Origin: Minisyncoccota bacterium
Lineage (GTDB): Bacteria > Patescibacteriota > Minisyncoccia > Phycocordibacterales > UBA9973
Length of the DNA: 64,000 bases
Direction: 5' to 3'
Assembly: GCA_018061035.1 (NCBI GenBank)
Contig: JAGOUX010000002.1
Span: 24,722 to 88,721, forward strand
A program made the position numbers and the translations under genes. Shown here in pieces: positions 20,891-59,464 of the stretch (position 1 is its first letter; every line of letters begins with the position of its first letter). The notes under the pieces were generated by a model. It was given only the letters and a program-made list of their open reading frames with translations, made no database searches and was not told the DNA's origin.

Positions 20891-21040
20891 AAGCGCCGAT
20901 AGCTGTTTTGGTAAGTCGTTAGATTGTAAGCGCTGATAGCTGTTTTGGTAAGTCGTTAGATTATATGCGCCCATAGCTGTTTTGGTAAGTCGTTAGATTA
21001 TATGCGCCCATAGCTGTTTTGGTAAGTCGTTAGATTATAT
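20891..21040 (+). repeat. four tandem 36-40 bp repeats, each a degenerate copy of a tRNA 5' half (acceptor + D-arm: GCGCC[CG]ATAGCTGTTTTGGTAAGTCG) plus TTAGATTATAT
   Basis: Units at 20891-20926, 20927-20966, 20967-21003 and 21004-21040; the last two are identical. The array abuts the genuine tRNA-Lys 5' end. Confidence 0.7.
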
Positions 21041-21113
21041 GCGCCCATAGCTCAGCTGGTAGAGCAGATCCCTTTTAAGGATAAGGTCGTTGGTTCGATT
21101 CCAACTGGGCGCA
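21041..21113 (+). tRNA. tRNA-Lys (anticodon TTT)
   Basis: Cloverleaf by hand: acceptor GCGCCCA/TGGGCGC, D-arm GCTC-AGCTGGTA-GAGC, anticodon loop CTTTTAA, T-loop TTCGATT, discriminator A. Confidence 0.85.
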
Positions 21114-29571: not shown

Positions 29572-30516
29572 TTGGATATGAATTTTGAACCTGATGTACC
29601 CAATTTAGTAAAAGGACCTGCTGTTAAATTTACTAGTCTTGTTATAGAGAGAGGTAAAACAGAATTATTCGACAATCTACCAGACAATAGCATTGCTCTT
29701 GATGGTTATGTCCAAGGACCAGAGTTTGATTTGGAGCGCAACAGATTTTCGTTTGACCATCACGATAGAGTAAATCGTCAGATTACACGCGCGAGTTGCC
29801 AGCAAGTGATGGACGCTATCCTCTTAGGATATGAACCAAAGGATGCCAGTATTCACATAAACGATATTGATGGTGATACCGTTCTGTCTGTTTGGCTTTT
29901 GCGTCATCCTGAAATGGCAAAGGATCCAAAAGTTAGAATGTTGGTGGAATCAGTGGGAGGTGTTGATGCTCATGGTCCCGCATATTTAGCCCTTGATCCA
30001 GAACTAGCTGAAAAGTTTTTTCAAGGAGTTATGAAACCAGAAGGCGACGCAAGGAGAAGCAGGACTTATGCTCAAGCTGACCTTGCTGTCTTATTAGAAC
30101 AATGTTTAAAAAACTTAGATGATCTAGTGTCCGGCAAGCTTGAATACACTAAAGTAGAAAATGAAAAAAGTTTTAAAGTCATAAAGGAAGGTTCAGGTTG
30201 GATTATGGCTGAGTCAGAGGATTTTGTTTTTGATCTTGTTTATAAAGCTGGTCATACTAGGGCAGTGGCAATACAAAGACAGCCAGACGGTAGTATTGCT
30301 TATACTGTTGCTAAAAAGTCCGAACTCGTGAGTAATTTTCCAGTTGGTCCAATGTCAAAAGAAGGTTCGATTCTTTATGAATTAAATAAAATTGAACCGG
30401 GTTGGGGCGGAGGTTCGACTATCGGAGGTGCGCCAAGAAATCCAGATGGTTCAAGGTCTAGATTATCACCAGAGCAAGTTTTTGAAGTGATTGAAAGAAT
30501 TGTAGGTAAAAAATAA
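29572..30516 (+). CDS. hypothetical protein with DHH-like (FDHHDR) and GGGS motifs; possible DHH/DHHA1-type phosphoesterase
   Basis: 314 aa (the NrnA size class), with motifs ALDGY, FDHHDRV, NDIDGD and GWGGGSTIGG; TTG start; moderately higher GC than the backbone. Confidence 0.35.
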   Translation: MDMNFEPDVPNLVKGPAVKFTSLVIERGKTELFDNLPDNSIALDGYVQGPEFDLERNRFSFDHHDRVNRQITRASCQQVMDAILLGYEPKDASIHINDIDGDTVLSVWLLRHPEMAKDPKVRMLVESVGGVDAHGPAYLALDPELAEKFFQGVMKPEGDARRSRTYAQADLAVLLEQCLKNLDDLVSGKLEYTKVENEKSFKVIKEGSGWIMAESEDFVFDLVYKAGHTRAVAIQRQPDGSIAYTVAKKSELVSNFPVGPMSKEGSILYELNKIEPGWGGGSTIGGAPRNPDGSRSRLSPEQVFEVIERIVGKK

Positions 30517-30524
30517 TCATTTTT

Positions 30525-31823
30525 ATGAAAACCCTCGACCAACAAGCACCAACACCACCACTTACAGGACGAGCCGGACTTGATCTCTTAAAAGCATCAT
30601 CTGCAAAAGTTGCAGGTATTCGTTTGGTTGATTTACTTAAAACCCCAGAAGGCAAAGAATTATTAAAAATAAAGAAGATTATTCTTGCTGGGCCACCTCG
30701 TTCAGGAAAATCCTGTCTACGACAAGGATTAAAAGATACTATTCGCACCATACCTGATGCTCCATATCCTCTTTTTATTACTGGTTGTCCAGATGGTGAA
30801 GGCGCGTGGTTTCAAGAGGCCATGAATAATGACCCAGCCCTAGCTGCTAAATTAAAAGCAGAATATAAATCTAAATTTACTCCAGAATTTGTATCGAGGG
30901 TCTCGGAAGGGGTAAAAAATCTATCCTTACCCCATAGTCCATTAAATTTTATAGATATAGGCGGAGTGACATCTCCAGAAAATGAAGAAATCTGCAAGTA
31001 TGCAAATGGTGCTGTTCTATTGTGCGGAGAAAGTGCCACAAAAAATGGAGCACCGGCAGAATGGAAAGCTTTTTTTGCAAAACTAGGTATTCCTGTTATT
31101 GCGGAAGTTTATTCAGATTATCATGGCAAGACTGATATTATTGATGGAGTGGGGGAGGATGGTGTTTTTAGGGGTTCTGTCCATCACCTTGAGCGTGGAG
31201 AGAATCTTTCAGGAAGAGAAGCAATTCAAGATTTGGCAAAATTTATTGTAAATTTAGGCGAGGAGCAAAGCAAAGAATCCAACTTGTCGCTAATGTCTAT
31301 TGAGCAAATAAAAGAAAGGGTCGATCTTCTAATTGAAGATTGGCAGAAGAAACTACCACAGACCCGAATCGTATTAGGCGGATCATTGGTGTCTGGATTG
31401 TTTATTTTAGATGAGCACACAAAATTGATTGATGTTGATGTAAGATTTCTGACTGATGGACAACCAAGTCAAGATTTAATAGAAAATATTGAAAATGTTA
31501 CAGGTTTGAAATATAGAAAAACAATAGCAGTGGAAGATTGGCCACAGGGTACGAGCGAAGGGTATATGATAGAAGGCCAAATTAAATTACCCGACTGCGA
31601 TTTGCCTTTAGACATAGAGGGTTGTTTGAGGAATAATAAGTATGTTGGCTGGGCAAGATTTTATCAACAAGTTTTGACACCCACAGAGCTGGTTGACTTC
31701 TTGGAAAAGAAGAAAAGTCTACGAGATCATAAGGTGGAATATAAAGCATTAAAAAAAGAAATGATAAAATTAGTTATTGGGCGGTGCATTGAGCGAGGTC
31801 TTGTTGATGCACCACAAGGCTAA
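30525..31823 (+). CDS. two-domain protein: N-terminal P-loop kinase-like NTPase (GPPRSGKS) fused to a C-terminal minimal nucleotidyltransferase-like domain (GGS...DxD)
   Basis: Walker A ILAGPPRSGKSCL; C-terminal IVLGGSLVSGLFILDEHTKLIDVDV fits the Pol-beta NTase hG[GS]x9-13Dh[DE]h pattern. Confidence 0.45.
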   Translation: MKTLDQQAPTPPLTGRAGLDLLKASSAKVAGIRLVDLLKTPEGKELLKIKKIILAGPPRSGKSCLRQGLKDTIRTIPDAPYPLFITGCPDGEGAWFQEAMNNDPALAAKLKAEYKSKFTPEFVSRVSEGVKNLSLPHSPLNFIDIGGVTSPENEEICKYANGAVLLCGESATKNGAPAEWKAFFAKLGIPVIAEVYSDYHGKTDIIDGVGEDGVFRGSVHHLERGENLSGREAIQDLAKFIVNLGEEQSKESNLSLMSIEQIKERVDLLIEDWQKKLPQTRIVLGGSLVSGLFILDEHTKLIDVDVRFLTDGQPSQDLIENIENVTGLKYRKTIAVEDWPQGTSEGYMIEGQIKLPDCDLPLDIEGCLRNNKYVGWARFYQQVLTPTELVDFLEKKKSLRDHKVEYKALKKEMIKLVIGRCIERGLVDAPQG

Positions 31824-32584
31824 TTATTTTCTGGATATTTATTCCACAGTGCGTCAAAAAGCATTTCAAAGGTTTTTGCTATGTTTACGTCTTCTATGAT
31901 TGTAGTAATAGAGCAATCTTTAAAAGAAGTTAGACCAACCTTGTCGCCGTATATAATAACCTGAGCTGGATTGTTTAATTCAATCCTAGGCACCCTTCTT
32001 CTTTCTATTAGGTACTTCTCGTCCTCCTCTTTGGTGACTGAGCTTGGTGTGTTTTTTATTGGAACAATTAGTTTTATTTTAATACCAGCTTCACGAAATA
32101 CCTCTCTATTTTTAGAGGTTATGGACTTCAAATCATCAGTGTTGTTATCAAGAGGGGAGCGAATCAGCTTTATATCTTTTCGTGTGTGTAGTATGTCTTT
32201 ATTCAAAATTTTAATTCCTTCCAGTCCTTCATAAAAACGTACTGTTGGTTTTCCACAAATAAGATTAAATTGTGCACCCATAGTACTTATAGCTTCATGA
32301 AGAGCTTGGTCTGCTAGTTTTAAGTCTTCTTCTTTTTTTTGTACCAATGTATGGAGCTTGGATGGATGCAGTGCTGAGAAGGTGCTTACAGATCCAGGTA
32401 CGGAATGCTCATTTATAAGCCCCAATTCTACAAGTTGCTTTAATATTTTATACACCAAACTACGATTAACCCTACTTTCCAGGGCAATTTTTCTGGCATG
32501 TAGTGTGCCCGTATTCACTAACGTAGAATATACTTTTGCCTGTTCCTCATTTAAGCCTATTTGCTCTAGTAATTTTATACTCAT
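31820..32584 (-). CDS. TrmB-family transcriptional regulator
   Basis: N-terminal wHTH LNEEQAKVYSTLVNTGTLHARKIALESRVNRSLVYKILKQLVELGLI and TrmB-like C-terminal domain; convergent with and overlapping the upstream module by 4 nt. Confidence 0.6.
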   Translation of the reverse strand: MSIKLLEQIGLNEEQAKVYSTLVNTGTLHARKIALESRVNRSLVYKILKQLVELGLINEHSVPGSVSTFSALHPSKLHTLVQKKEEDLKLADQALHEAISTMGAQFNLICGKPTVRFYEGLEGIKILNKDILHTRKDIKLIRSPLDNNTDDLKSITSKNREVFREAGIKIKLIVPIKNTPSSVTKEEDEKYLIERRRVPRIELNNPAQVIIYGDKVGLTSFKDCSITTIIEDVNIAKTFEMLFDALWNKYPENN

Positions 32585-32764
32585 AAATTGTTTTTTCTAT
32601 ATAACAATAATACCCTTATATTATCACGGTGGTATGCATGCTGTCAAATTTGTGTGAAAATATCCTTATTTATATAGATATATAATAAATTATGCTTGAC
32701 TTTAGACCCCTAATATGCTATACTTATATTAGTAAGGTTGGTTCTTTGAAAATAACCAGAGTCC

Positions 32765-32817
32765 TCGGCAGGTGAAGATAAACGTGAGAATTTTTCGTTT
32801 TTATCTTCACCTGCCGA
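32765..32817. other. perfect 18-bp-stem hairpin (TCGGCAGGTGAAGATAAA ... TTTATCTTCACCTGCCGA) bounding the left edge of a G+C-rich island
   Basis: Arms at 32765-32782 and 32800-32817 with a 17-nt loop; a possible terminator, insulator or att-associated structure. Confidence 0.45.
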
Positions 32818-32870
32818 CAAGCGGAGGGTGAAAAACAACCCGTCGGCGTAAAAGTCGACATTTTTGAGGA

Positions 32871-33176
32871 GTGATAATGACGACGACGTACAATGTTGTT
32901 CTCGAGGGTGGAAACACCCTCAAAATGTCATTCGGCGTTTCGGCGCAGAATGACGTGATTGTCCGCGACGCTGTCGCGGCGGTCAAGGCGCTCGAGCTGA
33001 CCGGTGGTAAGCTGGTCAAGCTCAACGGACCGGCGAGCCTGCCGGTCGCGTGCGCCATCGCGCACGAGGTCGGGCACCTTTACGGTGCCGTTGCCTGCTT
33101 CGACCCGAAGCTGGCAAAGTATGTCGTGGCAGTGAGCCACGACCCCGACTTCGCGGTCGGTGATCTCGTGGACTGA
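32871..33176 (+). CDS. small protein resembling Csx3/Crn3 (CRISPR-associated ring nuclease family), on a G+C-rich island
   Basis: About 100 aa with pattern GGKLVKLNGPASLPVACAIAHEVGHLYGAVACFDPKLAKYVVAVSHDPDFAVGDLV. This recalls the Csx3 core (GRAPIWLY..H..H..YDPRLG..VVVxRHHPDYPF) from memory only; strong RBS GAGGAG. Confidence 0.3.
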   Translation: MIMTTTYNVVLEGGNTLKMSFGVSAQNDVIVRDAVAAVKALELTGGKLVKLNGPASLPVACAIAHEVGHLYGAVACFDPKLAKYVVAVSHDPDFAVGDLVD

Positions 33177-33445
33177 AACATCAAATCCTGGACTCCCAAA
33201 AGGATCTAGGTCGGGTGATCATCGCATCACCCGTGCACTCGCAAGATGTGTATCTTGCCTGATGAGTCCAAAAGGACGAAAGTGTGGTTCTTTAAAAATA
33301 AAATATTCTGAAACTAGACAACTAGATTGTAAATCTATTTGTTGTTTGCTTGTCTGGTTTCAGACTAAAGGTGAAGTTGGCGACCTGAACTGCCAACATT
33401 TCACGCTCACGGCACAAGCCACGAGCACGAAAACGGGAGAGAAAA

Positions 33446-34942
33446 ATGAGAACGATCAGAATCGACACGACCAAGCGCGGTTTTGCAGCGATGTGGGAGT
33501 CGGGTGGAGGAATGACCTCCGGCGGTTCGGCTACCATCATCACTGGCAAGAATGGCGAAGCGCGGCGCCCGGTTTACATGCCACGTGGCGGGCATCTCGC
33601 CTGTGGCAATCACGCACTCATCACGGTTCACGAAGGTTTCTATGTCGTGCATGCCAGTGTGTCGCGCGGCACTCGTTCATCAGCCAGTATCTCCCGAATC
33701 GTCTCGGTGTCCGTGAAAGACATCGACGGCGAGAAGTGGGAAGCGAAGGCTGAAGTGGAGGAGGTTTATACCTTTTCCAAGGGCGAGTGGAACAAACCGC
33801 TCGAAGAGAAGTTCATCAAGGCAGTCGAGGCGGCCTTCCGTAAGGCAGGGGTGTATCACTGCCGGTCGGCCTACTACATCGACATTTCGGCGAAGCCGGA
33901 AGCCTCCGAGGCTGAGTTGACGAAACAAGCCGAAGAGACTCGCAGGCAGGACGAAGATCGTGCGCGTCTCCGGCAGGCCAAGGTTGACCGCGAAGCACAA
34001 GCCAAGGCGGAAGCCGAAGCTGCGAGCAAGGCGGCCAAGGAAGCCGGACTCGGTGCTCGTCTCGATGCGGTAAATGTTCGTCTGACGGCTCTCGGGCGCG
34101 AGCTTGTGGAGCAGGGTGAGGTTTCGTTCAAGTGGAGCTGGCAGAACCAGTACTACACTGAACAGGTCGTCGCCAACGTCGAGCGGAGCGTGACCCAGCT
34201 CGAGGCCGAGAAGATCGAGCAGGAACGCAAGCGCATCACGCGTGAAACGTTCCAGCCGAAGTTCGAGGTGTTCAAGCCCCGGATCGAAGCACTCAGTCTC
34301 ACGGTCGAGTTCGGAACGGACAGCGTCCGTCTCACTGGAGACTACTACGGGCAACCGTACTCCGATGAAGGTGTGGCGAAGTTCGCGGCCGAACTAGAAA
34401 AGCGGGAGCGGGACGCTGCCGAGGCGAGGGCAAAAGCCGACGCCGAAGCGAACTACCAACGGCGAAAGACGGAAGCGGTGGTCTTCGGGCTGCCGACCGA
34501 CATCCGCATCTGGCGTCGTCGCGGTGGTCGTACCAACGCGGGTGACGGGTGGGTCATCGGACCTAACGGCCAGGACCGTGCCAACACGGGTTGGTCGGAT
34601 CCGTACTCGCGTCGCCTTCAGCGCTACGGCGAGGGCGAGATGATCTGGGAGCAGGTGCTTCCGGGCGAGATCGTACTCAAGTGGTCGAAGTCGTCTTCGG
34701 CTGCCCCGCACGAGTTCGTGGTCGTCTACCACCCCACTGAGCCTCTCACCGAGGCTCAACTCGAGCGCATTCTGGAAATCGAGGATGAGCTGGAGAAGGA
34801 GTGGAAAAATGCTCGTGGTCTCGCTTCCGGCCTGTCGAGTCCGCCTGTCGGTGGTGGTTGGGGTCTTCTCCCGAAGTCCTCACCAAGCTCGAAAGGAGGC
34901 ACGGCGACGCTCGACGATCTCCGCTGCAAGTGGGGCGGGTGA
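33446..34942 (+). CDS. hypothetical 498-aa protein: N-terminal globular domain, Ala/Glu/Lys-rich coiled-coil (TolA-like AEAKAEAE repeats), C-terminal domain
   Basis: G+C-rich ORF with RBS GGGAGAG. It has no signal peptide or TM segment and no recognisable catalytic motif. Confidence 0.4.
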   Translation: MRTIRIDTTKRGFAAMWESGGGMTSGGSATIITGKNGEARRPVYMPRGGHLACGNHALITVHEGFYVVHASVSRGTRSSASISRIVSVSVKDIDGEKWEAKAEVEEVYTFSKGEWNKPLEEKFIKAVEAAFRKAGVYHCRSAYYIDISAKPEASEAELTKQAEETRRQDEDRARLRQAKVDREAQAKAEAEAASKAAKEAGLGARLDAVNVRLTALGRELVEQGEVSFKWSWQNQYYTEQVVANVERSVTQLEAEKIEQERKRITRETFQPKFEVFKPRIEALSLTVEFGTDSVRLTGDYYGQPYSDEGVAKFAAELEKRERDAAEARAKADAEANYQRRKTEAVVFGLPTDIRIWRRRGGRTNAGDGWVIGPNGQDRANTGWSDPYSRRLQRYGEGEMIWEQVLPGEIVLKWSKSSSAAPHEFVVVYHPTEPLTEAQLERILEIEDELEKEWKNARGLASGLSSPPVGGGWGLLPKSSPSSKGGTATLDDLRCKWGG

Positions 34943-35115: not shown

Positions 35116-35204
35116 AGAGAGTGAGGTTATAAAACATATCTGCCGAGCATGAAAATTGTTCGGCATTCTTGTTAAGTTTATAAGTTTCTTGTAGATTTAT
35201 AGGG

Positions 35205-37169: not shown

Positions 37170-38012
37170 ATGGATCGCATTAGAAACATATTAATACTCA
37201 CTCTTTTAACTTCAGGACTATTCTTTGCGCCATTGTACTCTTATGCTGCAACCCCGGTCAAGATTCTGCTTGTTCCTGGGCATGACAATGAAGTCTGGGG
37301 TGCTCAGTATGGCAATGTAAAAGAGGCAGCAATGAATCTAGCGGTGGCAAGCAGAATATACAATATCCTTAAAAAGGATAAGCATTTTGAGGTATATATT
37401 ACACGCGACATCTCAGGCTACACCAAAGAATTTTCCGATTTTTTAACTACCAAAAGAGAAGAAATAAATGCATTTAGAGCCGATCTCAAGAAAAATATGG
37501 TCGCTAAAATTGAAAGTGGTGAATTCATCCAAAAGGAAAATGTTCCTCACAACAACGCCGGAGAAGATGCTGCTGTTATGCTTTATGGAATTAATAAATG
37601 GGCCAACGAGAACAAGATGGATGCTGTGATCCACATTCACTTTAACGATTATCCCAGGAAGACTAGCTGGACTATAGGCAAGCACACAGGCTTTGCCATA
37701 TATATGCCCGATGGCGAGCTAGAGAATTGGTTTGAAAGTGGGCAATTGGCTGCAGATATATATACTCAGCTTCGAAAAAAGTATCAGACCAGCACCTACG
37801 AAGAAGAGCTCGGCGGGTTAGTTGCAGATCAAAAACTTATTGCAATTGGCGCCAATGGAAGCCTTTCTTCAAGCGTGCGGTCCGTTTTAGTAGAGTATGG
37901 ATATATGTACGAGAAGAAATTCCGTAATTACACAACTCGTCATCAAGCCTATGCTGATATGGCAAAGCTAACAGCTCAAGCTATAAAGAATTACTTTTCC
38001 CCAAAAAATTAG
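37170..38012 (+). CDS. N-acetylmuramoyl-L-alanine amidase (Amidase_3 family) with signal peptide
   Basis: ILLVPGHDNEVWGAQ, E-rich helix and DAVIHIHFND zinc-ligand pattern of Amidase_3; TGgTATAAT extended -10 at 37153-37161. Confidence 0.7.
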   Translation: MDRIRNILILTLLTSGLFFAPLYSYAATPVKILLVPGHDNEVWGAQYGNVKEAAMNLAVASRIYNILKKDKHFEVYITRDISGYTKEFSDFLTTKREEINAFRADLKKNMVAKIESGEFIQKENVPHNNAGEDAAVMLYGINKWANENKMDAVIHIHFNDYPRKTSWTIGKHTGFAIYMPDGELENWFESGQLAADIYTQLRKKYQTSTYEEELGGLVADQKLIAIGANGSLSSSVRSVLVEYGYMYEKKFRNYTTRHQAYADMAKLTAQAIKNYFSPKN

Positions 38013-38030
38013 TTTGTAAAGGACAGTCCT

Positions 38031-38600
38031 TTACAATTTTCCGCCAAGTATTTTGAGCGCTTCTTTTATTTTTTTGTTGGTGTCTAGATCAGGTGAAACT
38101 TTTTTAAGAGCATCGCGGGATTCGTTCTGAGAATATCCCAAGCTCTTTAATGCTTCGAGAGCGTCCAATTCGCCTTGTAGGGAAGTACTCATATCTTCCT
38201 TGCCCATCTTGTCTCGGAGTTCGATTACTATTTTCTCTGCTGTCTTTTTGCCAATACCAGAAATCTTAGTGAGGTATGATACATCTCCAGTGCCGATGGC
38301 CTTGCGAAGTGTTTCGATGGAAGCAATGCCAAGGATGGCTAGAGCGGACCGTGGACCAATACCAGATACATTGAGAAGCATTTCGAAAAACTCTAATTCT
38401 TGTTCTGCGAGAAAACCGTATAGATCAAAACTATCCTCGCGAACATGAGTGTGAATGAAAAAGAAAACCTCACCATCCTTCTTCTGGATTTTAGAGATGG
38501 TGTCGGGGGAGACGGCTACTTTATAGCCTACGCCACCTATTTCGACGAGGATGAATTTCTCTGTTTGGAGGGTTATTTTACCCCGAATGCTACCGATCAT
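38031..38600 (-). CDS. ruvA: Holliday junction DNA helicase RuvA
   Basis: OB-fold N-terminus MIGSIRGKI, tandem HhH motifs (GIGPRSA, GIGKKTA) and C-terminal domain III. Confidence 0.85.
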   Translation of the reverse strand: MIGSIRGKITLQTEKFILVEIGGVGYKVAVSPDTISKIQKKDGEVFFFIHTHVREDSFDLYGFLAEQELEFFEMLLNVSGIGPRSALAILGIASIETLRKAIGTGDVSYLTKISGIGKKTAEKIVIELRDKMGKEDMSTSLQGELDALEALKSLGYSQNESRDALKKVSPDLDTNKKIKEALKILGGKL

Positions 38601-38712
38601 GGGTTAATCATAACAATAATAGGCAGTATTCACACTTATTGACTTTTTGCATAAAAAGTGTATAATATAACGGTTAAAATGCTCTCTAGCGCTCTGAAAG
38701 GAGAAATAGATC

Positions 38713-39384
38713 ATGTCAAAGGACATGCTCGGCCCGCTGACCCGGGCGCTCGTCGGAGTTCCAGCAAAGATGCTGGGGCTCGTGCTCGATATCACCAACC
38801 GCCTCGGATCGGCGGACAGTGATACCTTCTACTCCGACCTCGCGAAGTTCGTGAGAGAGTGGAAGAAGGCAGTGGCGGTAATTCCGTCCCTGCTCGAGTT
38901 CGTCCGCACCACGACTGCGCCGGACACGAGCGAACCGTTCATCGCCAACGCTAAGTTCAAGCTGAAGAAGGACGGAGGAATCTGCTCCTACCTCGGCGAC
39001 AACTTCAATGCGTGGTTCCTCGCGGGCACCGGCAACATCGACGCTCCTGGCGGTGAGACGACGCTGACGATATCGCGGCTCACCAAGGCTTCGGTTGACC
39101 AGCCGATTCTGGACGAGCTCGGCGACAAGACCGATGTGGCACTCGTGGACATGTTTGCCAAGATGGAGGCACAGTCCAAAGGTCAGCCGGGTGAACTCCT
39201 CGTCGACGGTCGCGTGAACATCTTCTACGTTCGCGACCAGGACGGCGTCCTGCGCCCTGTCTACGTGCACTGGCTCGGCGACGGCTGGTGCGTCAACGCC
39301 TGCTCCACCGACTGCACTGCTCATTGGTATGCCGCTTACCAGGTCTTCTCTCGCAATTCTGCCCTCACATACTCGGCGCCTTAG
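38713..39384 (+). CDS. hypothetical protein on a G+C-rich insert
   Basis: 223 aa; own promoter TTGACT-16-TATAAT (38637-38664) and RBS AGGAG. It has no recognisable domain; a long antisense ORF is a composition artefact. Confidence 0.4.
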   Translation: MSKDMLGPLTRALVGVPAKMLGLVLDITNRLGSADSDTFYSDLAKFVREWKKAVAVIPSLLEFVRTTTAPDTSEPFIANAKFKLKKDGGICSYLGDNFNAWFLAGTGNIDAPGGETTLTISRLTKASVDQPILDELGDKTDVALVDMFAKMEAQSKGQPGELLVDGRVNIFYVRDQDGVLRPVYVHWLGDGWCVNACSTDCTAHWYAAYQVFSRNSALTYSAP

Positions 39385-39569
39385 GAATCAGCCGCAAGCT
39401 GAGCCTCAGACCCTGGGAATCTTGGACACTCGGTTCGCTTACGCGGGCCGGGTGTCTTTTTCGTTTTGTACAAAGTCTGTTTTATGAAGGAATATTGCTC
39501 TAAGGTACTCCTTTTAATTTTGAGGCGATGAAATTTGCATTTTAAGGCTATTTTTGCTACATTATCTCT

Positions 39570-39821
39570 ATGCCAATAACACAATCAGCTAAGAAAGCGA
39601 TCCGAGGATCCCTTCGCAAGAAGGCTGTTAATGATTCCCGAAAGCGCGCTATGAAAGAAATAATCAAGAAAATTGAGAAATCCGTTAAGGCTGACAAGGC
39701 CGAAGCTCTCAAGATGCTCTCTGGTGCCTTTGCAGCTATTGATAAAGCCGCTAAAAAAGGTGTTATCAAAAAGAATAATGCTTCTCGCAAGAAAGCTCGT
39801 CTTTCTCGCTTAACAAAATAA
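39570..39821 (+). CDS. rpsT: 30S ribosomal protein S20
   Basis: MPITQSAKKAIRGSLRKKAVNDSRKRAMKE... is a canonical S20. Confidence 0.85.
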   Translation: MPITQSAKKAIRGSLRKKAVNDSRKRAMKEIIKKIEKSVKADKAEALKMLSGAFAAIDKAAKKGVIKKNNASRKKARLSRLTK

Positions 39822-39931
39822 GCATTTCGGACTATAATTAATAAAAGCACGCATAAAATTCTACTGAATTTTTGCTCAAGACTACGGGCTGTCGCCCTCC
39901 GTATGGCTTTTATTAATAATAATCCTTCACT

Positions 39932-40195
39932 ATGAATCATCTACTTCATTTTTATGGTACCGAATGTCCTCACTGCGTGCATATGCATGAGTTAGTGGAG
40001 CGACTGGAAAAAGAAGAGGGGATCAAAATGGAATCCCTGGAAGTCTGGCACAACAAAGACAACGAAGCTAAATTACTTGAATTAGACAAAGATCTCTGTG
40101 GAGGAGTTCCTTTTTTCTACAATACTAAAACCAATAAATGGATTTGTGGGGAAGAGTCCTACGAGGCTCTTAAGGATTGGGCACAAGACAAATAG
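39932..40195 (+). CDS. small thioredoxin/glutaredoxin-like protein (CPHC active site)
   Basis: 87 aa with a YGTECPHC motif and a thioredoxin-fold length. Confidence 0.6.
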   Translation: MNHLLHFYGTECPHCVHMHELVERLEKEEGIKMESLEVWHNKDNEAKLLELDKDLCGGVPFFYNTKTNKWICGEESYEALKDWAQDK

Positions 40196-43737: not shown

Positions 43738-43763
43738 ACATTTACGCTATCGCGTATACATGC
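43738..43763. promoter_or_regulatory. operator-like site ACATTTACGCTATCGCGTATACATGC (copy 1), overlapping the cas2-like gene promoter
   Basis: Near-identical to the copy at 44178-44205; internal dyad symmetry (CAT...ATG ends); TATAAT at 43772-43777 just downstream. Confidence 0.45.
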
Positions 43764-43801
43764 AATGGGTGTATAATTTACACATGCCTTACTATAAGGG
43801 T

Positions 43802-44161
43802 ATGCGAGTAAATGGTTTCGGCTTGCCAACCTTTAAAGATAATAGTAAAAGCCGCGTAAAGCAGAAGAGTAGGAAAAGGAACATCTACCACACTACCTTT
43901 TCTTCTCCGTTTGAAAAGGATTCACCCAAGAACCTAATTTTGATGTATGACGTCGCTGAAGAGAAAAAGAAGGAGAGGGATTGGTTTCGTCGGCAACTCA
44001 AAAACTTTGGTTTTACAATGATCCAAAGAAGTGTCTGGGTCGGTCCTTCGCCTCTACCTACAGAGTTCCTAGACTATGTTAAAGTAATTGGCTTGAAAGA
44101 CAATCTTAAGACTTTCAAATTGGCTAAAGCTTATACAGGGAAGGAGAGCGTATTTAATTAA
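43802..44161 (+). CDS. Cas2-like small protein (solo, no cas1 or CRISPR array nearby)
   Basis: Core LILMYDVAEEKKKERDWFRRQLKNFGFTMIQRSVWV parallels the Cas2 N-terminal motif (ILMFDM...ER..FRKFL...GF.M.QFSV). ATG at 43802 chosen because earlier in-frame ATGs lie inside or upstream of the -10. Confidence 0.4.
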   Translation: MRVNGFGLPTFKDNSKSRVKQKSRKRNIYHTTFSSPFEKDSPKNLILMYDVAEEKKKERDWFRRQLKNFGFTMIQRSVWVGPSPLPTEFLDYVKVIGLKDNLKTFKLAKAYTGKESVFN

Positions 44162-47364: not shown

Positions 47365-49293
47365 TTAATGATGCGCAGTATGATTGTCGTGTCCATCTAG
47401 TGGATGAGAATCATATGAAGTTGGTGGTACTGGTGCGGCTAAGTATCGCTCTACGTATCGTGGTCGAGTCTGGTCGTACAAGTATCGTCCAAGGGCGATA
47501 AGTATGAGCACGAGCACGATTAGTAGTAACCAGCCGAAGATATTTGAAGGAAGGAAAAATCCTGATCCAAAAGCATTGGCTCCAAAGAATCCCACTTCAT
47601 TACCATCTCTCCATACCTGAGCTGAAACATTTGCGCTCACGGTTTGAGTCTGACCATTCACATCAGTGTATGAAAGAATTGCAGGGAAGTTTAGAACTGT
47701 TCCAGGATTGATATTCTCTCGTACTTTGACGCGGATAGTTATAGAACCTTGAGCTCCAGCTCGTAGAGTTCCGAGATTGAAGGTTAGATTATTTCCATTT
47801 CGGAAAGGGTTATTGGGATTAGAGAACATATAATCAACCTCTGATGGAAGAGATATCTGAAGAGTAAGATTTGTGACAGAAGTAGTACCTACGTTCTGAT
47901 AGCTCACTGTGTAGGTGATCTCGTCTCCTGGTCGTGGGTTGGTGTTATCAAGAGTAGGAACGATAGGCTGATTGCGATCTACAGAAGAAGAAACGATCAC
48001 AAGAGAGCTTGCTAGGGTTTTTACTGTTGTAGACTGACCTCGTACATTTACAGTTGCAGAATTACTGATAGAACCATAACCATTTGTACAAGTGATACTA
48101 TATGTTCGGCTTGATGTTAGAGAACCAGTATAGAAAGATGCAGGACCAATGCTTTTTGTACCAGCCCATCCTACAGATCCGCCGGTGCCGTAACAAGAAG
48201 TAGCATTTGCTGTGCTCCATCTTATGAAGGTAGCGCCATTGTAGGCTACTGAAGTGTCGTCAGCATAGATAGTGACTGTGGGCTGATTGTTTATGACAGT
48301 ATTGTATCTGCAAGGAAGTACGCCTCGGTAGTTGATAGCGCTGACATCGTTACAGATTTGAAGTTGTGGGTACTGACATGGAAGAGCACCTCGGTAGTTG
48401 GTAGCTGAGGGGTCATTACATAGTAGTACTTGGTAGTACTGACAAGGCAATGCACCACGATAATTAGTTGCTGATGGATCATTACATACCTGTACTTGAT
48501 AGTACTGACATGGAAGAGCACCTCGGTAGTTGGTAGCTGTAGGATCATTACATACTTGCTGTTGATAATACTGACATGGCAGTGTGCCGTGATAGTTGGT
48601 AGCAGAAGGATCCTGACAAAGCTGAGGTGGGTAAGTACATGGAAGACTTCCTCCATAGTTGCTTGCAGTTGTATCCTGACAAGTTTGGTTGCTTACATAT
48701 ACGATAGCAGATGCGTTGGCAGAGCCAGCACTATTTGTACAGGTGATATTGTAAGGAGTTGTACCGGTAAGGACGCCGGTAGGGAATGTGCCAGAAGTAT
48801 TCTTTCCTCCTGACCATCCGAATGCACCAGCGCTTCCCACACAAGAAGTTGCGTTGGTTGAAGACCAGATAACAGTACTAGATCCTCCATAGCTAATACT
48901 GCTTGGATTCGCAGAGATGGTAACTGTTGGAAGCTGGGTTGGGCCTGTACAAGAACCACCACTCATAACTGTTCCTGTTACGTAAGCAGTGGCCACTACT
49001 CCTGAAGAATTTGTTCCAGTAATAGTGAAAGTTGTTGTTTGATTCAAAGTTACATCTCGTTCACCTGTAGGAGGGACAGATCCAACATTGGTTATGTTAA
49101 CCACTGTAGCGTCTGTTGATGACCAGATTAAATGAATCTGCTGTCCTGCGCAAACAGTGCTAGGAGATGCAGATATGCTTACTGAGGGAACTCCATTTTC
49201 AGCCTTAGCTTGAGATAGGGGAAATAAAAAGGCCCCTAGGACAATTACTAGCGACATGAAAACATTGATAATGGCGTTTTGTGTGTGTTTCAT
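47365..49293 (-). CDS. secreted cell-surface repeat protein with DUF11-like domain and C-terminal TM anchor
   Basis: Signal peptide and Thr/Ser/Gly-rich Ig-like modules. Five or so tandem 22-aa repeats CNDPSATNYRGALPCQYYQVQV (66-bp DNA repeats at about 48306-48690), a DUF11-like segment and a C-terminal hydrophobic anchor. Confidence 0.6.
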   Translation of the reverse strand: MKHTQNAIINVFMSLVIVLGAFLFPLSQAKAENGVPSVSISASPSTVCAGQQIHLIWSSTDATVVNITNVGSVPPTGERDVTLNQTTTFTITGTNSSGVVATAYVTGTVMSGGSCTGPTQLPTVTISANPSSISYGGSSTVIWSSTNATSCVGSAGAFGWSGGKNTSGTFPTGVLTGTTPYNITCTNSAGSANASAIVYVSNQTCQDTTASNYGGSLPCTYPPQLCQDPSATNYHGTLPCQYYQQQVCNDPTATNYRGALPCQYYQVQVCNDPSATNYRGALPCQYYQVLLCNDPSATNYRGALPCQYPQLQICNDVSAINYRGVLPCRYNTVINNQPTVTIYADDTSVAYNGATFIRWSTANATSCYGTGGSVGWAGTKSIGPASFYTGSLTSSRTYSITCTNGYGSISNSATVNVRGQSTTVKTLASSLVIVSSSVDRNQPIVPTLDNTNPRPGDEITYTVSYQNVGTTSVTNLTLQISLPSEVDYMFSNPNNPFRNGNNLTFNLGTLRAGAQGSITIRVKVRENINPGTVLNFPAILSYTDVNGQTQTVSANVSAQVWRDGNEVGFFGANAFGSGFFLPSNIFGWLLLIVLVLILIALGRYLYDQTRPRYVERYLAAPVPPTSYDSHPLDGHDNHTAHH

Positions 49294-49513
49294 AAAATTT
49301 CTATTAATTTAATAAATCCTTAATAATATACCTATTGTATCATAAAGAAAATTAATGTCAAGGGTTAGCAGAAAATCCTCAAACTTGACATTGCGTATAA
49401 TATCTGATACAATACTTAATGAGATTTTAATATGAGGTGCAAGGTGCGCCTCATGTAGTTCGTCGAAAGCTTAATGACCTCATCCGTTAGGATAGAGGTT
49501 CGAAGGAGAGGTC

Positions 49514-50833
49514 ATGAACAAATTCAAGTTTTTTGCAGTCCTCGTGTTGTTCTCGGTTTTCTCAGCAGCTTGTCCGGAGAAGTTCAAGCGTCCGTGCAGC
49601 GACGATGAGTGTAAGACCACATCGTCGCCACTCGCGCCTACTACTGCTGTTTTGGTGGAAGTTTGCGTTTCGGCAAATGCCAGCGCTTCCGCAATGGCAG
49701 TGTGTACGTATGGTGTTGCAACCGGTACCGGTAGCGGTTCGGCTAAAGTTTGTGCAATGGTCTCTCCAGAGAATCACGAGGCGTGGAAGAAGGAGAACCT
49801 GGCTGTCGCGCAAAAGGACGCGAATGCTCAAGCCACAGCAACTGCTGTTTGTCTTGCGCCACCTGTTGTTCCTCCGACAGCTCCACCCACCGCTCCGCCA
49901 CCCACATCGCCACCACCCGCAATCGACGTGTGCCCGAACATCTCGGGCGTGCAGGAAACCATTCCTTCGGGAATGATCAAGGATGGGAACGGTAATTGCG
50001 TGGTTCCGCCAGTAATCACTGCTCCTACGTGCTCAGCACAGGGGAGCGTCCAGGCAGGTAATGCTGCAGTTTTCACCGCAACGGGAGGGAATGGTACATA
50101 CACTTGGTTTGGCAACGGTTCGCCGTCGTCAGCAAGTGGCTCTGTGTTCTCAACAACATACGCGAGCGCTGGCACTTACTCGGTGACGGTCAGCTCAGCA
50201 GGAATGAGTAATACCTGCAGTGTCGTTGTCACCACAGTTCCGCCGCCGGCGTGTGTTTGGTCGGTTGATCCGGTGATTCACTTCACCGCATCGGGCGGCC
50301 AAGGTTCGGCATCAGTTATTCCGAATCGGTCGGACTGTCCACAACCGACGTGGACTTCAAGCGGTTACCCAAGCTGGGTGACAGTGAATAGATCGTCTGG
50401 ATCGGGAGCTGGCTCTATTGGAGTCACTGCTCCATCAAACCCGACGACCTCGATTCGCAGCCAGGTCGTCACAGTGACGGCTTCGGATGGCAACCACACG
50501 GTGACCATTACCCAGGATGCAGGCGTGGCAAGCTGCACTTGGGCAGTGGAAAATGCCACGATCGGCTGGCAGGGGGGCGAAGTTAGCGCCTCGGTCACAC
50601 CAGGCATCGGTTGTTCTGGTAACTGGTCGGCAACGACCAACAACCCTCAACAGCTTGACCTTTTGACTACAGGCGGTTCGCCGGTGATTACAATCAACGG
50701 CATAAACGCAGGGACCGTCAGGGGGTCGGTGTCGACTAATAACACCACAATCATTCGGACCTTTACCATCACGTGGACTGGTCCGGGTGGAATTTCTAAG
50801 ACTATTACGGTTACGCAAGCCGCGCATCCGTAA
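49514..50833 (+). CDS. secreted Pro/Thr/Ser/Gly-rich protein with Ig/PKD-like repeats, on a G+C-rich insert
   Basis: Signal peptide MNKFKFFAVLVLFSVFSAAC, PPTAPPTAPPPTSPPP linker and repeated Cys-containing beta-rich modules; RBS GGAGAGG; conspicuously G+C-rich. Confidence 0.5.
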   Translation: MNKFKFFAVLVLFSVFSAACPEKFKRPCSDDECKTTSSPLAPTTAVLVEVCVSANASASAMAVCTYGVATGTGSGSAKVCAMVSPENHEAWKKENLAVAQKDANAQATATAVCLAPPVVPPTAPPTAPPPTSPPPAIDVCPNISGVQETIPSGMIKDGNGNCVVPPVITAPTCSAQGSVQAGNAAVFTATGGNGTYTWFGNGSPSSASGSVFSTTYASAGTYSVTVSSAGMSNTCSVVVTTVPPPACVWSVDPVIHFTASGGQGSASVIPNRSDCPQPTWTSSGYPSWVTVNRSSGSGAGSIGVTAPSNPTTSIRSQVVTVTASDGNHTVTITQDAGVASCTWAVENATIGWQGGEVSASVTPGIGCSGNWSATTNNPQQLDLLTTGGSPVITINGINAGTVRGSVSTNNTTIIRTFTITWTGPGGISKTITVTQAAHP

Positions 50834-51137
50834 CTCCAGTTCTTTCACATCAAGTCCTCAGAAAGGAGGCACATCAAAGGGCCCTATCGCTATCGCGAAG
50901 GGCCCTTTAATAATTTAGGTACAGATTTTTAATACTCGTAAAGTTTTAGTGATAAGAAATTACTAATTTTCCAATTAAACATAATTTTAATATTCAAATA
51001 AAAAACCATTAAAAAATTTTCTAATGGTTTTTTATTTCTTATCATCCACTCTACAAAATCATAACGTTTTATTTATAACTTTGTAGAGTGGAGAAGAGGG
51101 AGGGGTTGACCTCGCATCTTCTCCGATAGATCTTGCA

Positions 51138-51800: not shown

Positions 51801-51995
51801 TTCCGGACTCCTTGAATTGTGGGGAACAGGGGACGGGCGGGCGGAATGCCAGCCACACTCCTAATAATTATATCACTTTATATTAAAATGTCAATGTTAA
51901 ATTTGTATTATTTACATATCTAAAAAATGGGTGTTTTGGCTCAAAAAAACAAAAAAGAATACCGCAGACGGTACTCCTTTTTGTTTCCACACATT

Positions 51996-52013
51996 GTGCC
52001 CTCACCAGGAATC
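51996..52013. repeat. 18-bp duplicate of the tRNA-Arg 3' end (GTGCCCTCACCAGGAATC), att-like direct repeat
   Basis: Identical to 52083-52100 within the tRNA 87 bp away; the flanking pseudo-T-arm is degenerate. Confidence 0.5.
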
Positions 52014-59260: not shown

Positions 59261-59293
59261 TATTCTGCCTTTTGTTATAATAGAATAGTTTGA

Positions 59294-59357
59294 TTTGCCC
59301 CCGATCGCCTGCTCGTAGACTCGCAACGGCGATTCTGTAAGACAGATTGGGGGCAAA
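59294..59357 (+). other. long imperfect hairpin (TTTGCCCCC.GATCGCC ... GGCGAT ... GGGGGCAAA) between rplS and tRNA-Leu
   Basis: Nested inverted repeats read directly from the sequence; a possible rplS terminator or tRNA-processing structure. Confidence 0.35.
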
Positions 59358-59461: not shown

Positions 59462-59464
59462 ACG

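Follow-up and report, generated by a model that had tools for sequence, protein, structure and literature searches.

Two adjacent genes (genes 1 and 2), encoding a DHH/DHHA1-like protein and a fusion of a P-loop domain to a nucleotidyltransferase, may be the A+T-rich arm of a Csx3 module that has two arms and works independently of CRISPR. We tentatively favor the reading that this module turns over or relays an oligoadenylate-type signal. The P-loop domain matches a known CRISPR-ancillary domain, and a Csx3 gene lies close to it here and in most loci that hold such a domain.

The features of the module are as follows, with positions numbered along the window, the whole 64-kb stretch of DNA that was analysed.

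29572-30516, plus strand: gene 1, DHH/DHHA1-like (family 'G1'), 314 aa; ORF, fold and motifs
30525-31823, plus strand: gene 2, P-loop ('AAA') plus predicted Pol-beta-type nucleotidyltransferase, 432 aa; ORF, PADLOC and Foldseek
31820-32584, minus strand: TrmBL2-type winged-helix regulator, 254 aa; Pfam TrmB and TrmBL2 profile match
32585-32870, no strand assigned: divergent control region; promoter scan, fold energy and conservation
32871-33176, plus strand: Csx3/Crn3-family ring-nuclease homolog, 101 aa; Pfam Cas_csx3 and PADLOC Csx3-AAA
33233-33287, plus strand: predicted type III hammerhead ribozyme; Rfam RF00008, intact core and covariation
33446-34942, plus strand: 'P498', a 498-aa gene, downstream cargo of the Csx3 transcript; ORF
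35141-35165, plus strand: terminator-like hairpin ending the G+C-rich arm; consensus scan only

Layout and composition of the locus

The ORFs and coordinates of gene 1, gene 2 and the TrmB-type gene are exactly as a preliminary description had given them, and all of the motifs that it quoted are present, as is the 4-nt overlap (31820-31823) of gene 2 with the convergent regulator gene. The module extends further to the Csx3 gene, the hammerhead and P498; the Csx3 gene, which is divergent from the regulator and lies 287 bp beyond it, had been overlooked. Genes 1 and 2 come after uvrA and uvrC in the same orientation, separated by 8-9 nt (9 nt from the end of uvrC to the start of gene 1), and the module is flanked by the house-keeping uvrC and a SpoU methylase gene.

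Contrary to the first proposal, genes 1 and 2 and the regulator gene are not intermediate in composition: their G+C content of 36-40% equals or falls below the average of the window (40.5%), and their GC3 values (0.26-0.29) are lower than those of uvrA and uvrC (0.35-0.42). The Csx3 gene and P498 are 61% G+C as against ∼39% elsewhere. This bias is restricted to the genes, the spacers between them being A+T-rich. Both the G+C-rich arm and the hammerhead recur across loci of 'candidate phyla radiation' (CPR) bacteria, and in 47 of 48 CPR loci the Csx3 arm exceeds the host locus by 10-25 G+C points. Such an excess would be expected if the arm were recently acquired foreign DNA, the module being mobile-element counter-defence cargo in which a ring nuclease and a phosphodiesterase destroy immune nucleotide signals, much as viral ring nucleases (AcrIII-1) do. 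Serine recombinases adjoin the module in loci L012 and L105, tRNA genes stand at the end of the arm in L011, L013 and L016, and homologs of gene 1 (33-39% identity) are encoded by eight viral contigs of 131-409 kb, jumbo-phage contigs included, all of which fit such an origin. We nevertheless consider it quite improbable, given that 2.9 million viral contigs yielded no match to the P-loop domain, that the bias is confined to genes between A+T-rich spacers, and that the arm stays in a fixed position beside the regulator across proteins just 45-80% identical, contrary to what recent independent insertions would give.

The P-loop protein, Csx3 and the regulator

The P-loop domain of gene 2 (residues ∼45-246, nt 30657-31262) carries the motif ILAGPPRSGKSCL (52-64), and the nucleotidyltransferase domain (residues ∼257-428, nt 31293-31808) carries GGS (285-287) followed by DVDV (303-306). 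Gene 2 matches the PADLOC Csx3-AAA profile PDLC01045 over positions 87-285 of 286 (E 4.9e-47) as well as PDLC01515 (E 1e-42), and its P-loop domain is thereby the 'AAA' portion of Csx3-AAA, a CRISPR-ancillary protein. The preliminary description had not recognised the cassette as a described system; the P-loop domain is nonetheless a described ancillary domain (PADLOC E 5e-47), and PADLOC lists it, like Csx3, as a CRISPR-associated accessory family and not as a stand-alone defence system. Gene 2 itself lacks a Csx3 domain, Csx3 being encoded by its separate gene.

Walker A (GPP-x-SGKS) and Walker B (D144-x-GG) are invariant among 19-24 sequences; in a set of 22-24 homologs of gene 2 both of these and the GGS...DxD residues are invariant or nearly so, as are L284-G285-G286-S287 and D303-V-D305 among 22 full-length homologs. 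Nearly invariant E350 and E365 are candidates for the third catalytic carboxylate, and D90, 28 residues past the Walker-A lysine, is invariant. The Pfam NTP_transf_2 match is below threshold (E 0.2, 12.5 bits against a cut-off of 21). The AF2 model (pLDDT 86.8) has its best Foldseek match in 6n39 (E 7e-7), the mycobacterial CoaE fusion of dephospho-CoA kinase to GrpB/UPF0157, which has the same domain order although at 14% identity and a TM-score of ∼0.25; the P-loop domain of gene 2 is of the Csx3-associated family and not of CoaE. Further matches are to Pol mu (E 1.9e-4), Pol lambda, RelP/SAS2, the CCA enzyme and SIMIBI P-loops. The modeled fold thus bears out the proposed fusion, with gene 2 predicted to be a P-loop (kinase/SIMIBI-like) domain followed by a Pol-beta-type nucleotidyltransferase. 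Elsewhere the C-terminal partner of the P-loop domain is a Nudix-like or an HD domain (P0206).

In Csx3-AAA of cyanobacterial type III CRISPR-Cas (also Csx3' or Crn3-AAA) the same P-loop domain is fused to Csx3, so that of gene 2 most likely acts with Csx3. Both settings share the Csx3 residue pattern H..H/D-P-K/H, but in the window the domains are separate genes on either side of a regulator, the P-loop carries a C-terminal nucleotidyltransferase, and no CRISPR array or cas10 is nearby within the 64 kb; the window adds to the cyanobacterial theme a TrmBL2-like regulator, a G+C-rich arm and hammerheads. No function has been assigned in the literature to the cyanobacterial protein (PMC7371418, PMC12409355) or to its P-loop domain (PMC7371418, PMC8284326, PMC12409355).

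Csx3 is the sole part of the module with a biochemically defined relative. In CRISPR immunity the enzyme is known to destroy a cyclic-nucleotide alarm signal. Csx3/Crn3 binds cyclic tetra-adenylate (cA4) as a sandwich between a pair of dimers, and in the presence of Mn2+ cleaves it to linear di-adenylate that bears a 3' phosphate (PMC7371418). The A. fulgidus protein (AfCsx3, AF_1864) is also a deadenylating RNase (cited in PMC7371418), with binding ∼100-fold weaker than for cA4 (PMC7371418). The window Csx3, whose probable start is the ATG at 32877, scores 30.8 bits against Pfam Cas_csx3 (cut-off 21) and aligns with positions 3-98 of PADLOC Csx3-AAA (E 4e-20), although with 27.7 it stays short of the NCBIfam equivalog cut-off of 55.4. 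Aligned to AF_1864 it keeps the equivalents of H57, D69 and H80, whereas the position of H60, essential in AfCsx3, is a glycine with a histidine one residue later (61), R71 is replaced by lysine, and there is no CRISPR context. The same catalytic-residue pattern is found in CRISPR-linked cyanobacterial Csx3; an alanine or glycine at H60 with the other five residues identical occurs in 34 of 55 CPR-like and 13 of 18 cyanobacteria-like stand-alone Csx3 proteins, and most of the remainder differ only at the H60 position.

The regulator matches Pfam TrmB (E 2.9e-13), and when 22 homologs are combined into a profile, its positions 10-251 of 254 align with TrmBL2 (5bpd; E 8.4e-11). It thus is of TrmB type, as the preliminary description had it, with an N-terminal TrmB winged helix and a TrmBL2-like C-terminal domain and without the sugar-binding domain. 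In the divergent control region, a promoter scan yielded promoter-like sites on the minus strand (32647..32620, TTGACA-16-GATAAT) and on the plus strand (32696-32724, TTGACT-17-TATACT), followed by a 5' leader that is structured and contains a 21-bp hairpin (32765-32817); the fold energy is -62.8 kcal/mol (z -6.5). Across 8 loci the promoter blocks are conserved, as is the hairpin, whose stem shows compensatory changes.

Of the 86 loci with a gene 2-type P-loop domain, 81 have Csx3 next to it or fused with it, and 36 related loci have a TrmBL2-like regulator. Repeated additions, fused or adjacent, are DHH-like, nucleotidyltransferase, Nudix-like and HD domains, and HD_4 genes recur nearby. Most related loci do without the nucleotidyltransferase and the DHH-like gene alike; the two are optional add-ons and not part of the core. 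A second, stand-alone copy of Csx3 is common in CPR and cyanobacterial settings. CRISPR arrays accompany 12 of 30 cyanobacteria-like loci, whereas none of at least four repeats was found in ∼50 CPR-like loci; nor has the window any array, and among its 58 ORFs there is no match to Cas10, Csm or Cmr.

A conserved core of sensor and P-loop with swappable enzymatic domains is the usual logic of a defence system, and the module could act in abortive infection, with Csx3 or a histidine-less paralog sensing a nucleotide signal, the P-loop protein as switch, and the variable enzymes (nucleotidyltransferase, DHH-like, Nudix-like and HD), together with G+C-rich cargo such as P498, as effectors, either depleting or altering nucleotides or harming the cell. 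Csx3 copies without the histidines that keep the D69 cA4-binding face do adjoin the P-loop gene in L010, L011, L013, L018, L020 and L021; conflict-system neighbours are found (MoxR-VWA in 9 loci, a Cap15 receptor-domain gene in L012), and the gene behind the hammerhead is variable. This is a possibility that we regard as somewhat unlikely, since PADLOC has these proteins only as CRISPR-associated accessory families, neither a toxic effector domain nor a signal source is recognised, and the window module sits between house-keeping genes.

Gene 1 and its linkage to the module

Gene 1 contains the motifs F61-DHH-DR, N97-DIDGD and G277-WGGGSTIGG. In a set of 37 homologs, 50-87% identical to gene 1, D44, D62, H63, H64, N97, D98, D100, D102 and D132 are invariant, as are G277, W278, G280, G285, G286, P288 and R289. 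These motifs, like those of gene 2, are not chance strings, being invariant or nearly so across homologs. The counterpart in DHHA1 of the invariant GWGGGS-x-IGG-x-PR (277-289) would be GGGH, and the order of motifs is non-canonical, with DHH upstream of DxDGD in place of the order I-IV. The protein has no Pfam or NCBIfam match even at E ≤ 1, DHH (PF01368) and DHHA1 (PF02272) included, and none in PADLOC; a profile of the family, which counts 624 homologs and 805 clusters at 50% identity, found nothing in the PDB.

The assignment to the DHH/DHHA1 type made in the preliminary description is borne out by fold. With the AF2 model (pLDDT 90.9), the best 18 Foldseek matches in the PDB are all of the DHH family (8a8k, 9r7o, 5xsp, 5o1u and 5x4h among them), with archaeal PAP phosphatase (8a8k), NrnA, DhhP, GdpP, TM1595 and RecJ at the top; viral DHH proteins were also matched. 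Probabilities reach 0.99 and the best E is 4.9e-4, with TM-scores of just 0.3-0.4, as expected for two mobile domains. NrnA, GdpP, DhhP and TM1595 share with gene 1 a two-domain architecture of ∼310 residues and conserved DHH and glycine-rich motifs, although gene 1 departs from these nanoRNases and pApA phosphodiesterases in its TM-scores, motif order and lack of sequence-level membership. By its modeled two-domain fold, gene 1 therefore appears to be a divergent DHH/DHHA1 phosphoesterase. A parallel is NrN, a DHH-family phosphodiesterase of CorA-type type III CRISPR systems that degrades SAM-AMP and is sometimes fused to its effector as nrn-corA (PMC10600005). Like NrN, gene 1 encodes a protein of DHH/DHHA1 fold and neighbours a component of nucleotide signalling, and the NrN structure 9lqb is among its Foldseek matches (E 0.05); unlike NrN, to which it has no detectable sequence similarity, its DHH precedes DxD and it matches neither Pfam model.

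Homologs of gene 1 are mostly in unrelated neighbourhoods, and their presence there and in jumbo-phage contigs indicates that gene 1 is not dedicated to the module. These neighbourhoods, and the position of genes 1 and 2 closely behind uvrA-uvrC on the same strand, would suit ordinary metabolic enzymes with no relation to each other, a nanoRNase-like phosphoesterase and a nucleotide kinase/transferase, that became neighbours by chance. That explanation is largely refuted by conserved linkage and is very improbable. DHH-like genes adjoin the P-loop gene in L010, L011, L013, L015, L020 and L046, and one (G1B) is fused to the P-loop domain in L018, these being independent lineages; the motif GWGG..TI.G.P is common to gene 1 and the DHH-like neighbours. 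Furthermore, L104, with a protein 75% identical to gene 2, repeats the exact order of gene 1, gene 2, TrmB on the minus strand and Csx3 in a different genomic neighbourhood.

The hammerhead ribozyme and possible roles of the module

Csx3 and P498 are separated by a predicted self-cleaving type III hammerhead (33233-33287), with cleavage predicted 3' of C33240. It matches RF00008 over the full model with an intact CUGAUGA/GAAA core (37.8 bits, E 1.4e-5), albeit below the gathering score of 48.5, which no related copy reaches either. Another 23 distinct hammerheads were found in related loci, on the same strand, and none in reversed controls. Among 16 related copies 96.3% of cells are paired, compared with 31-50% in slid controls, and 14 of 17 pairs show compensatory changes on both sides, supporting all three helices; both figures are to be read in light of a descriptor that required these helices when the copies were collected. 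In 14 loci a hammerhead follows Csx3 at a distance of 51-189 nt, and same-strand pairs flank single genes in L013, L015, L036, L049 and L058. We found no paper linking hammerheads to Csx3 or reporting them in Patescibacteria/CPR, nor one describing a CRISPR-less Csx3 set combined with hammerhead RNA. P498 has no family match (Pfam, NCBIfam, PADLOC); its more than 120 homologs in CPR are without Pfam domains, related C-terminal domains adjoin Csx3/AAA in L014, L055 and L058, and P498 also follows a hammerhead in L101.

The hammerheads raise the question of an RNA end-healing or processing kit acting on ends with 5'-OH and 2',3'-cyclic phosphate, such as those from the ribozymes of the locus. 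The P-loop protein would be a polynucleotide or ribose-hydroxyl kinase, the nucleotidyltransferase would tail 3' ends, the DHH-like protein would be a 3'-phosphatase or nanoRNase, and Csx3 an Mn-dependent 3' exoribonuclease, as it was first described. The best structural match of gene 2 does join a ribose-3'-OH kinase (CoaE) to a nucleotidyltransferase fold, the CCA-adding enzyme is matched too, the spacing of D90 from the Walker-A lysine may be that of many P-loop kinases, and the RNase activity of AfCsx3 and the placement of the hammerheads are consistent with such a role. It is improbable, however, as no ligase (RtcB, Rnl) is seen among the recurrent neighbours, the RNase binding of Csx3 is so much the weaker, and most loci dispense with both the nucleotidyltransferase and the DHH-like gene.

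Turnover or relay of an oligoadenylate-type signal, the reading that we tentatively prefer, builds on observed homologies, folds, motif conservation, gene linkage and fusions, and ribozyme covariation. It is supported by the Csx3-AAA identity of the P-loop domain, its linkage to Csx3 and the TrmB-like gene, the order in L104, the adjacency and fusion of DHH-like genes and their shared motif, the Nudix-like, HD and HD_4 partners, the fold of gene 1, the precedent of NrN-CorA as a signal off-switch (PMC10600005), the cyanobacterial-type residue pattern of Csx3 and the conserved divergent promoter region. Opposed to it are that no signal synthase was found, that neither the window nor ∼50 CPR-type loci contain a CRISPR array and none of the 58 window ORFs is cas10, that the literature assigns no function to the P-loop domain, the changes at H60 and R71, and the occurrence of gene 1 homologs mostly elsewhere; it also leaves the G+C bias and the variable cargo genes unaccounted for. 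The earlier idea of a self-contained nucleotide-signalling cassette fits the tight link to Csx3, although, with no signal synthase found, 'self-contained' is unproven.

The substrates, order of steps, protein contacts and signal source of the following scheme are all ones that we infer. Csx3 would bind and open an oligoadenylate-type signal, the P-loop/nucleotidyltransferase protein would modify or relay the product by end phosphorylation or nucleotidylation, and the DHH-like enzyme would break short linear products down into mononucleotides, in the way that NrnA/GdpP-type enzymes act on pApA and NrN on SAM-AMP. The TrmBL2-like repressor would govern the divergent promoter of the Csx3-hammerhead-cargo transcript, which the hammerhead would split into separate mRNAs. 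The gene set around Csx3 is widespread in CPR bacteria, and the nucleotidyltransferase of gene 2 and the gene 1 protein may be interchangeable nucleotide-processing additions to it.

Gene layout and the two halves of Csx3-AAA

The three genes assigned to this region in the preliminary description are all present in the window with the positions and sizes it gave, and the 4-nt convergent overlap of gene 2 with the regulator was borne out. The motifs quoted for genes 1 and 2 are likewise present, and alignments of homologs show that they are under selection. A Csx3 gene 287 bp past the regulator had been overlooked. The features of the region are as follows.

29572-30516 (+), gene 1, DHH-like, 314 aa, starting 9 nt after uvrC
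30525-31823 (+), gene 2, P-loop plus Pol-beta-type nucleotidyltransferase, 432 aa, 8-nt gap to gene 1
31820-32584 (-), TrmB-type regulator, 254 aa, convergent with gene 2, 4-nt overlap
32871-33176 (+), Csx3/Crn3 homolog, 101 aa, divergent from the regulator
33233-33287 (+), complete type III hammerhead (Rfam), between Csx3 and the 498-aa gene
33446-34942 (+), 498-aa gene, 61% G+C, 3' of the hammerhead

Csx3-AAA proteins have been counted among the type III CRISPR accessories since 2019. The fusion is described in cyanobacterial type III CRISPR loci, and the literature assigns no function to its P-loop half (PMC7371418, PMC8284326, PMC12409355). Residues 27-242 of gene 2 match the PADLOC Csx3-AAA profile (positions 87-285 of 286, E 4.9e-47), and the 101-aa protein matches positions 3-98 of it (E 4e-20) and exceeds the cut-off of Pfam Cas_csx3. 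Because gene 2 matches the P-loop half and the 101-aa ORF the Csx3 half, both halves of the fusion are, by profile similarity, present in the window; they are split into separate genes here, whereas the cyanobacterial loci carry the fused form. The earlier interpretation of genes 1 and 2 as nucleotide enzymes is retained in part, but not its view that the system is undescribed, since the P-loop half is that of PADLOC Csx3-AAA.

The Walker A motif, D144-x-GG, GGS (285-287) and D303-x-D305 of gene 2 vary little or not at all among its homologs. The C-terminal half carries a minimal Pol-beta nucleotidyltransferase signature with a weak Pfam match (E 0.2). The top Foldseek match of the gene 2 model (pLDDT 86.8) is mycobacterial CoaE (E 7e-7), in which a ribose-3'-OH kinase is joined to a GrpB domain of nucleotidyltransferase fold; lower in the list, the C-terminal domain matches Pol mu/lambda, RelP and CCA enzyme, and the N-terminal domain SIMIBI-class or kinase P-loops. 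Compared with the PDB, a P-loop domain profile matched the P-loop itself and nothing beyond it. The regulator contains a TrmB winged helix, and its alignment with TrmBL2 (E 8e-11) spans the whole protein.

Residues H57, D69 and H80 of AF_1864, the A. fulgidus Csx3/Crn3, have equivalents in the window Csx3, although H60 is replaced by glycine with a histidine one position later, and R71 by lysine. This pattern (H57, a small residue at H60 followed by His, D-P-K, H80) is that of the majority of stand-alone Csx3 proteins, both CPR-like and CRISPR-linked cyanobacteria-like, which makes the window Csx3 a normal member of the bacterial branch and a putative ring nuclease. Six related loci have a second Csx3 adjoining the P-loop gene. 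These paralogs are A+T-rich and host-like in composition, and have lost the equivalents of H57, H61 and H80 while keeping the D69 (D-P-K) face that binds cyclic tetra-adenylate (cA4) in Csx3, which suggests a binding-only partner.

Second Csx3 paralogs, by locus
L010 9310-9657
L011 1502-1849
L013 3109-3456
L018 9532-9927
L020 9576-9947
L021 3151-3555

Conservation of the module and its CRISPR context

The gene 2 alignment was scanned against one genome per species, and the returned loci were searched with our own HMMs. The P-loop domain was found in 86 loci, with Csx3 adjacent or fused in 81 of them and a TrmBL2-like gene in 36. The order of P-loop gene, opposite-strand regulator and Csx3 some 300 bp on is common to the window, L014-L017, L019 and L021, and the complete order of gene 1, gene 2, regulator and Csx3 is seen again in L104, amid different neighbours and with gene 2 at 75% identity. 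The nucleotidyltransferase is fused to the P-loop domain in the window and L010-L013 and is a gene of its own in L035, L036, L016 and L089; other P-loop homologs bear Nudix-like or HD domains, and small HD_4 genes recur close by. A second DHH-like family, G1B, adjoins the P-loop gene in L010, L011, L013, L015 and L020; in L018 the two are fused. G1B shares the C-terminal GWGG..TI.G.P motif with gene 1, and its N-terminal motifs are parallel; hhalign of the two families detected the C-terminal ∼45 residues and no more, so that the N-terminal halves are linked by the parallel motifs only. From these linkage and fusion counts, Csx3 and the P-loop domain are the core of the module; gene 1 and the nucleotidyltransferase recur as nucleotide-processing additions that a locus can do without.

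Alignment of 37 homologs that share 50-87% identity with gene 1 shows no variation at D62-H63-H64, N97-D98-x-D100-x-D102, D132 or G277-W-x-G...G285-G286-x-P-R. No match to gene 1 was found in Pfam, NCBIfam or PADLOC, nor to its family profile (G1) among PDB sequences. G1 is a large family, with 624 homologs; an exhaustive profile search returned 805 clusters at 50% identity, and gave no sequence bridge from G1 to the DHH family. The best 18 Foldseek matches in the PDB to the AlphaFold model (pLDDT 90.9) are all DHH/DHHA1 enzymes, including archaeal PAP phosphatase, DhhP, GdpP, TM1595 and RecJ, with the SAM-AMP phosphodiesterase NrN lower in the list, at modest scores (best E 4.9e-4, TM-scores 0.3-0.4). 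The model thus argues for a DHH/DHHA1-fold protein, which we regard as divergent and outside the Pfam families because its DHH motif lies upstream of DxD.

Ten multi-domain G1 members contain no Pfam domain and, in a local HMM scan, no P-loop, nucleotidyltransferase or Csx3. In P0393, P0401 and P0408 (873-962 aa) and in P0447, P0475, P0492 and P0504 (∼590-640 aa), a long N-terminal region is fused ahead of the gene 1-type domain, and neither a Pfam domain nor another module domain was found in it. The neighbourhoods of gene 1 homologs are mostly unrelated to the module, and the gene 1 side of the link is loose. That these are simply metabolic enzymes adjacent by chance is nevertheless hardly credible, since the conserved linkage of the module genes largely excludes it.

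Of the 30 loci of the cyanobacteria, Poribacteria and Entotheonella type, among which Cas10 is a recurrent neighbour, 12 have CRISPR arrays at a distance of up to 10 kb, and one gene 1 homolog is placed among type III accessory genes (Csx1-like CARF, Card1, RT-Cas1). No array of at least four repeats was found among the CPR-type loci; the 64-kb window has no array, and no match to Cas10, Csm or Cmr was obtained among its 58 larger ORFs. Judged from the window and the CPR-type loci, the module is likely independent of CRISPR. The sole cas-like match in the window is a 133-aa ORF, 43760-44161 (+), in which residues 59-97 correspond to the N-terminal third of the Cas2 profiles (E 5e-8). CBASS and other known stand-alone defence systems were rejected, as PADLOC yields Csx3-type matches only. 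A sensor-switch-effector defence system, to which the putative binding-only Csx3 copies could be fitted, is a somewhat unlikely reading.

Other gene associations were seen. Short P-loop/Csx3 pairs have two recurrent sets of neighbours. One is a protein of ∼800-1200 aa with a C-terminal GNAT domain, whose gene abuts the TrmB-like gene (L025 2665-5160, and 13 further CPR-type loci); the other is a pair of MoxR and VWA genes (L043 13083-16034, and eight further loci). L103 (3030-8602) groups a TrmB-like gene with a DHH-like gene of the G1B type and a G+C-rich homolog of the 498-aa protein, in a cluster that has no Csx3 or P-loop gene; such parts can therefore come together without the Csx3 core.

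Counter-defence cargo of a mobile element is a further, improbable explanation. tRNA genes at the far end of the G+C-rich arm (L011 5245-5316, L013 7803-8028, L016 13110-13182) and serine recombinase/resolvase genes beside the module (L012 1124-1951, L105 2914-4206) hint at mobility. Eight very large viral contigs (L093-L100, IMG/VR, 131-409 kb) encode full-length gene 1 homologs at 33-39% identity; the viral-contig scan found no gene 2 P-loop domain.

The G+C-rich Csx3 arm and its hammerheads

The composition of genes 1, 2 and the regulator is not intermediate, as had been proposed: they have 36-40% G+C, where the window averages 40.5%, and in G+C at third codon positions (GC3, 0.26-0.29) they lie below the adjoining uvrA and uvrC. 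Csx3 and the 498-aa gene are 61% G+C (GC3 0.71-0.77) with spacers of 34-44%. Across 48 CPR-type loci the histidine-bearing Csx3 averages 13.8 G+C points over its own locus, with an excess above 5 points in 47, compared to 0.9 points in cyanobacteria-like loci (p 1e-9). In the window (61% over a backbone of 40%) and in the CPR-type loci L010-L062 the enrichment is bound to genes, with GC3 up to 0.9 and A+T-rich spacers. Csx3 and the gene 3' of the hammerhead show it, as does the short P-loop gene in many loci; it is missing from the cyanobacterial homologs. Assembly chimerism was rejected as its source, as independent JGI and NCBI assemblies show the same arrangement. Raised G+C (0.46-0.52) also occurs at 38000-40000, 49000-52000 and 59000-60000 of the window, where the hammerhead descriptor found nothing. 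At 20893-21052 a 37-bp unit in 4.3 tandem copies (95% identical) borders on, or runs into, the beginning of a tRNA gene (21041-21113).

The window hammerhead scores 37.8 bits (E 1.4e-5), under the Rfam gathering score of 48.5, which none of the copies reached. A covariance model was dropped because MAFFT misaligned copies of unequal length; a descriptor scan, with reversed sequences as control, took its place. It found 26 motifs (24 distinct) in the 1.58 Mb of loci that were fetched, every one on the Csx3/coding strand, and none in the reversed control. They typically begin 51-189 nt past the Csx3 stop or between G+C-rich genes, and in several loci two bracket one gene. In 16 equal-length copies 96.3% of cells pair, compared to 31-50% in slid controls, and both sides change in 14 of 17 pairs, figures to be read with the descriptor's own demand for helices.

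Hammerheads in related loci
L011 4599, 4706; L013 6227, 7655; L014 7912; L015 11014, 12705
L016 12867; L017 2889; L019 9201; L021 5723; L032 7779; L034 11184
L036 11736, 15062, 15747; L039 6405; L042 4953; L044 8553
L049 8160, 8957; L058 9812, 12868; L101 6727

The identity of the gene 3' of the hammerhead differs from locus to locus. For the 498-aa protein, over 120 homologs occur in CPR, none with a known domain, one of which is also encoded 3' of a hammerhead in a locus lacking Csx3. In the regulator-Csx3 spacer (32585-32870), promoter-like sites placed back to back are conserved, and the 5' leader is structured: it has a hairpin of 21 bp (32765-32817) and a second, small one. The stems show compensatory changes across loci, and the region could therefore be an operator or a regulatory RNA. 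Literature searches on Csx3 in Patescibacteria, hammerheads in CPR, and hammerheads with Csx3 found nothing relevant, and we found no description of a G+C-rich arm punctuated by ribozymes. A quite unlikely alternative is a kit for healing RNA ends, linked to the products of these hammerheads, with the likeness of gene 2 to the CoaE kinase fusion in its favour.

Possible function and significance

Homology, gene linkage, fusions and RNA covariation are established for the module. It is the Csx3-AAA accessory module in a split, regulator-linked and apparently CRISPR-independent form, to which a nucleotidyltransferase and a DHH-like protein are added. The best-supported reading, held tentatively, is turnover or relay of an oligoadenylate-type signal, for which we infer the substrates, step order, protein contacts and signal origin. 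Csx3 would bind and open the signal, the P-loop/nucleotidyltransferase protein would work with Csx3 on the opened product, and the DHH-like enzyme would complete hydrolysis to mononucleotides, by analogy to the action of NrnA/GdpP on pApA and of NrN on SAM-AMP; the TrmBL2-like protein would govern the Csx3-hammerhead-cargo transcript. NrN is in some cases fused to its partner (PMC10600005), a likeness to the P-loop-G1B fusion of L018.

A broader proposal, unlikely as it stands, is that Patescibacteria have a widespread CRISPR-independent Csx3 system of two arms, with the composition split reflecting selection on RNA. The A+T-rich arm would comprise the P-loop protein, swappable nucleotide enzymes and a TrmBL2-type repressor; the G+C-rich arm would be a transcript of Csx3, hammerhead and variable cargo gene, cut by the ribozyme into separate messages. 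GC3 of 0.7-0.9 versus 0.25-0.3 might result, for example, from messages surviving an A/U-directed RNase during the response. If true, nucleotide-signal systems would gain a new kind, one whose effector cassettes are processed by ribozymes.

Routine annotation would miss both the sub-threshold hammerheads and the gene-bound G+C bias; the two together could account for the 'G+C-rich islands' of these A+T-rich genomes. The CPR loci are natural experiments in which the P-loop domain is split from Csx3 and fused to four nucleotide-processing enzymes, apparently free of Cas10; their variety narrows the possible roles of this domain and supplies compact proteins for biochemistry. They also raise the question of what use an oligoadenylate ring nuclease has in organisms mostly without CRISPR.
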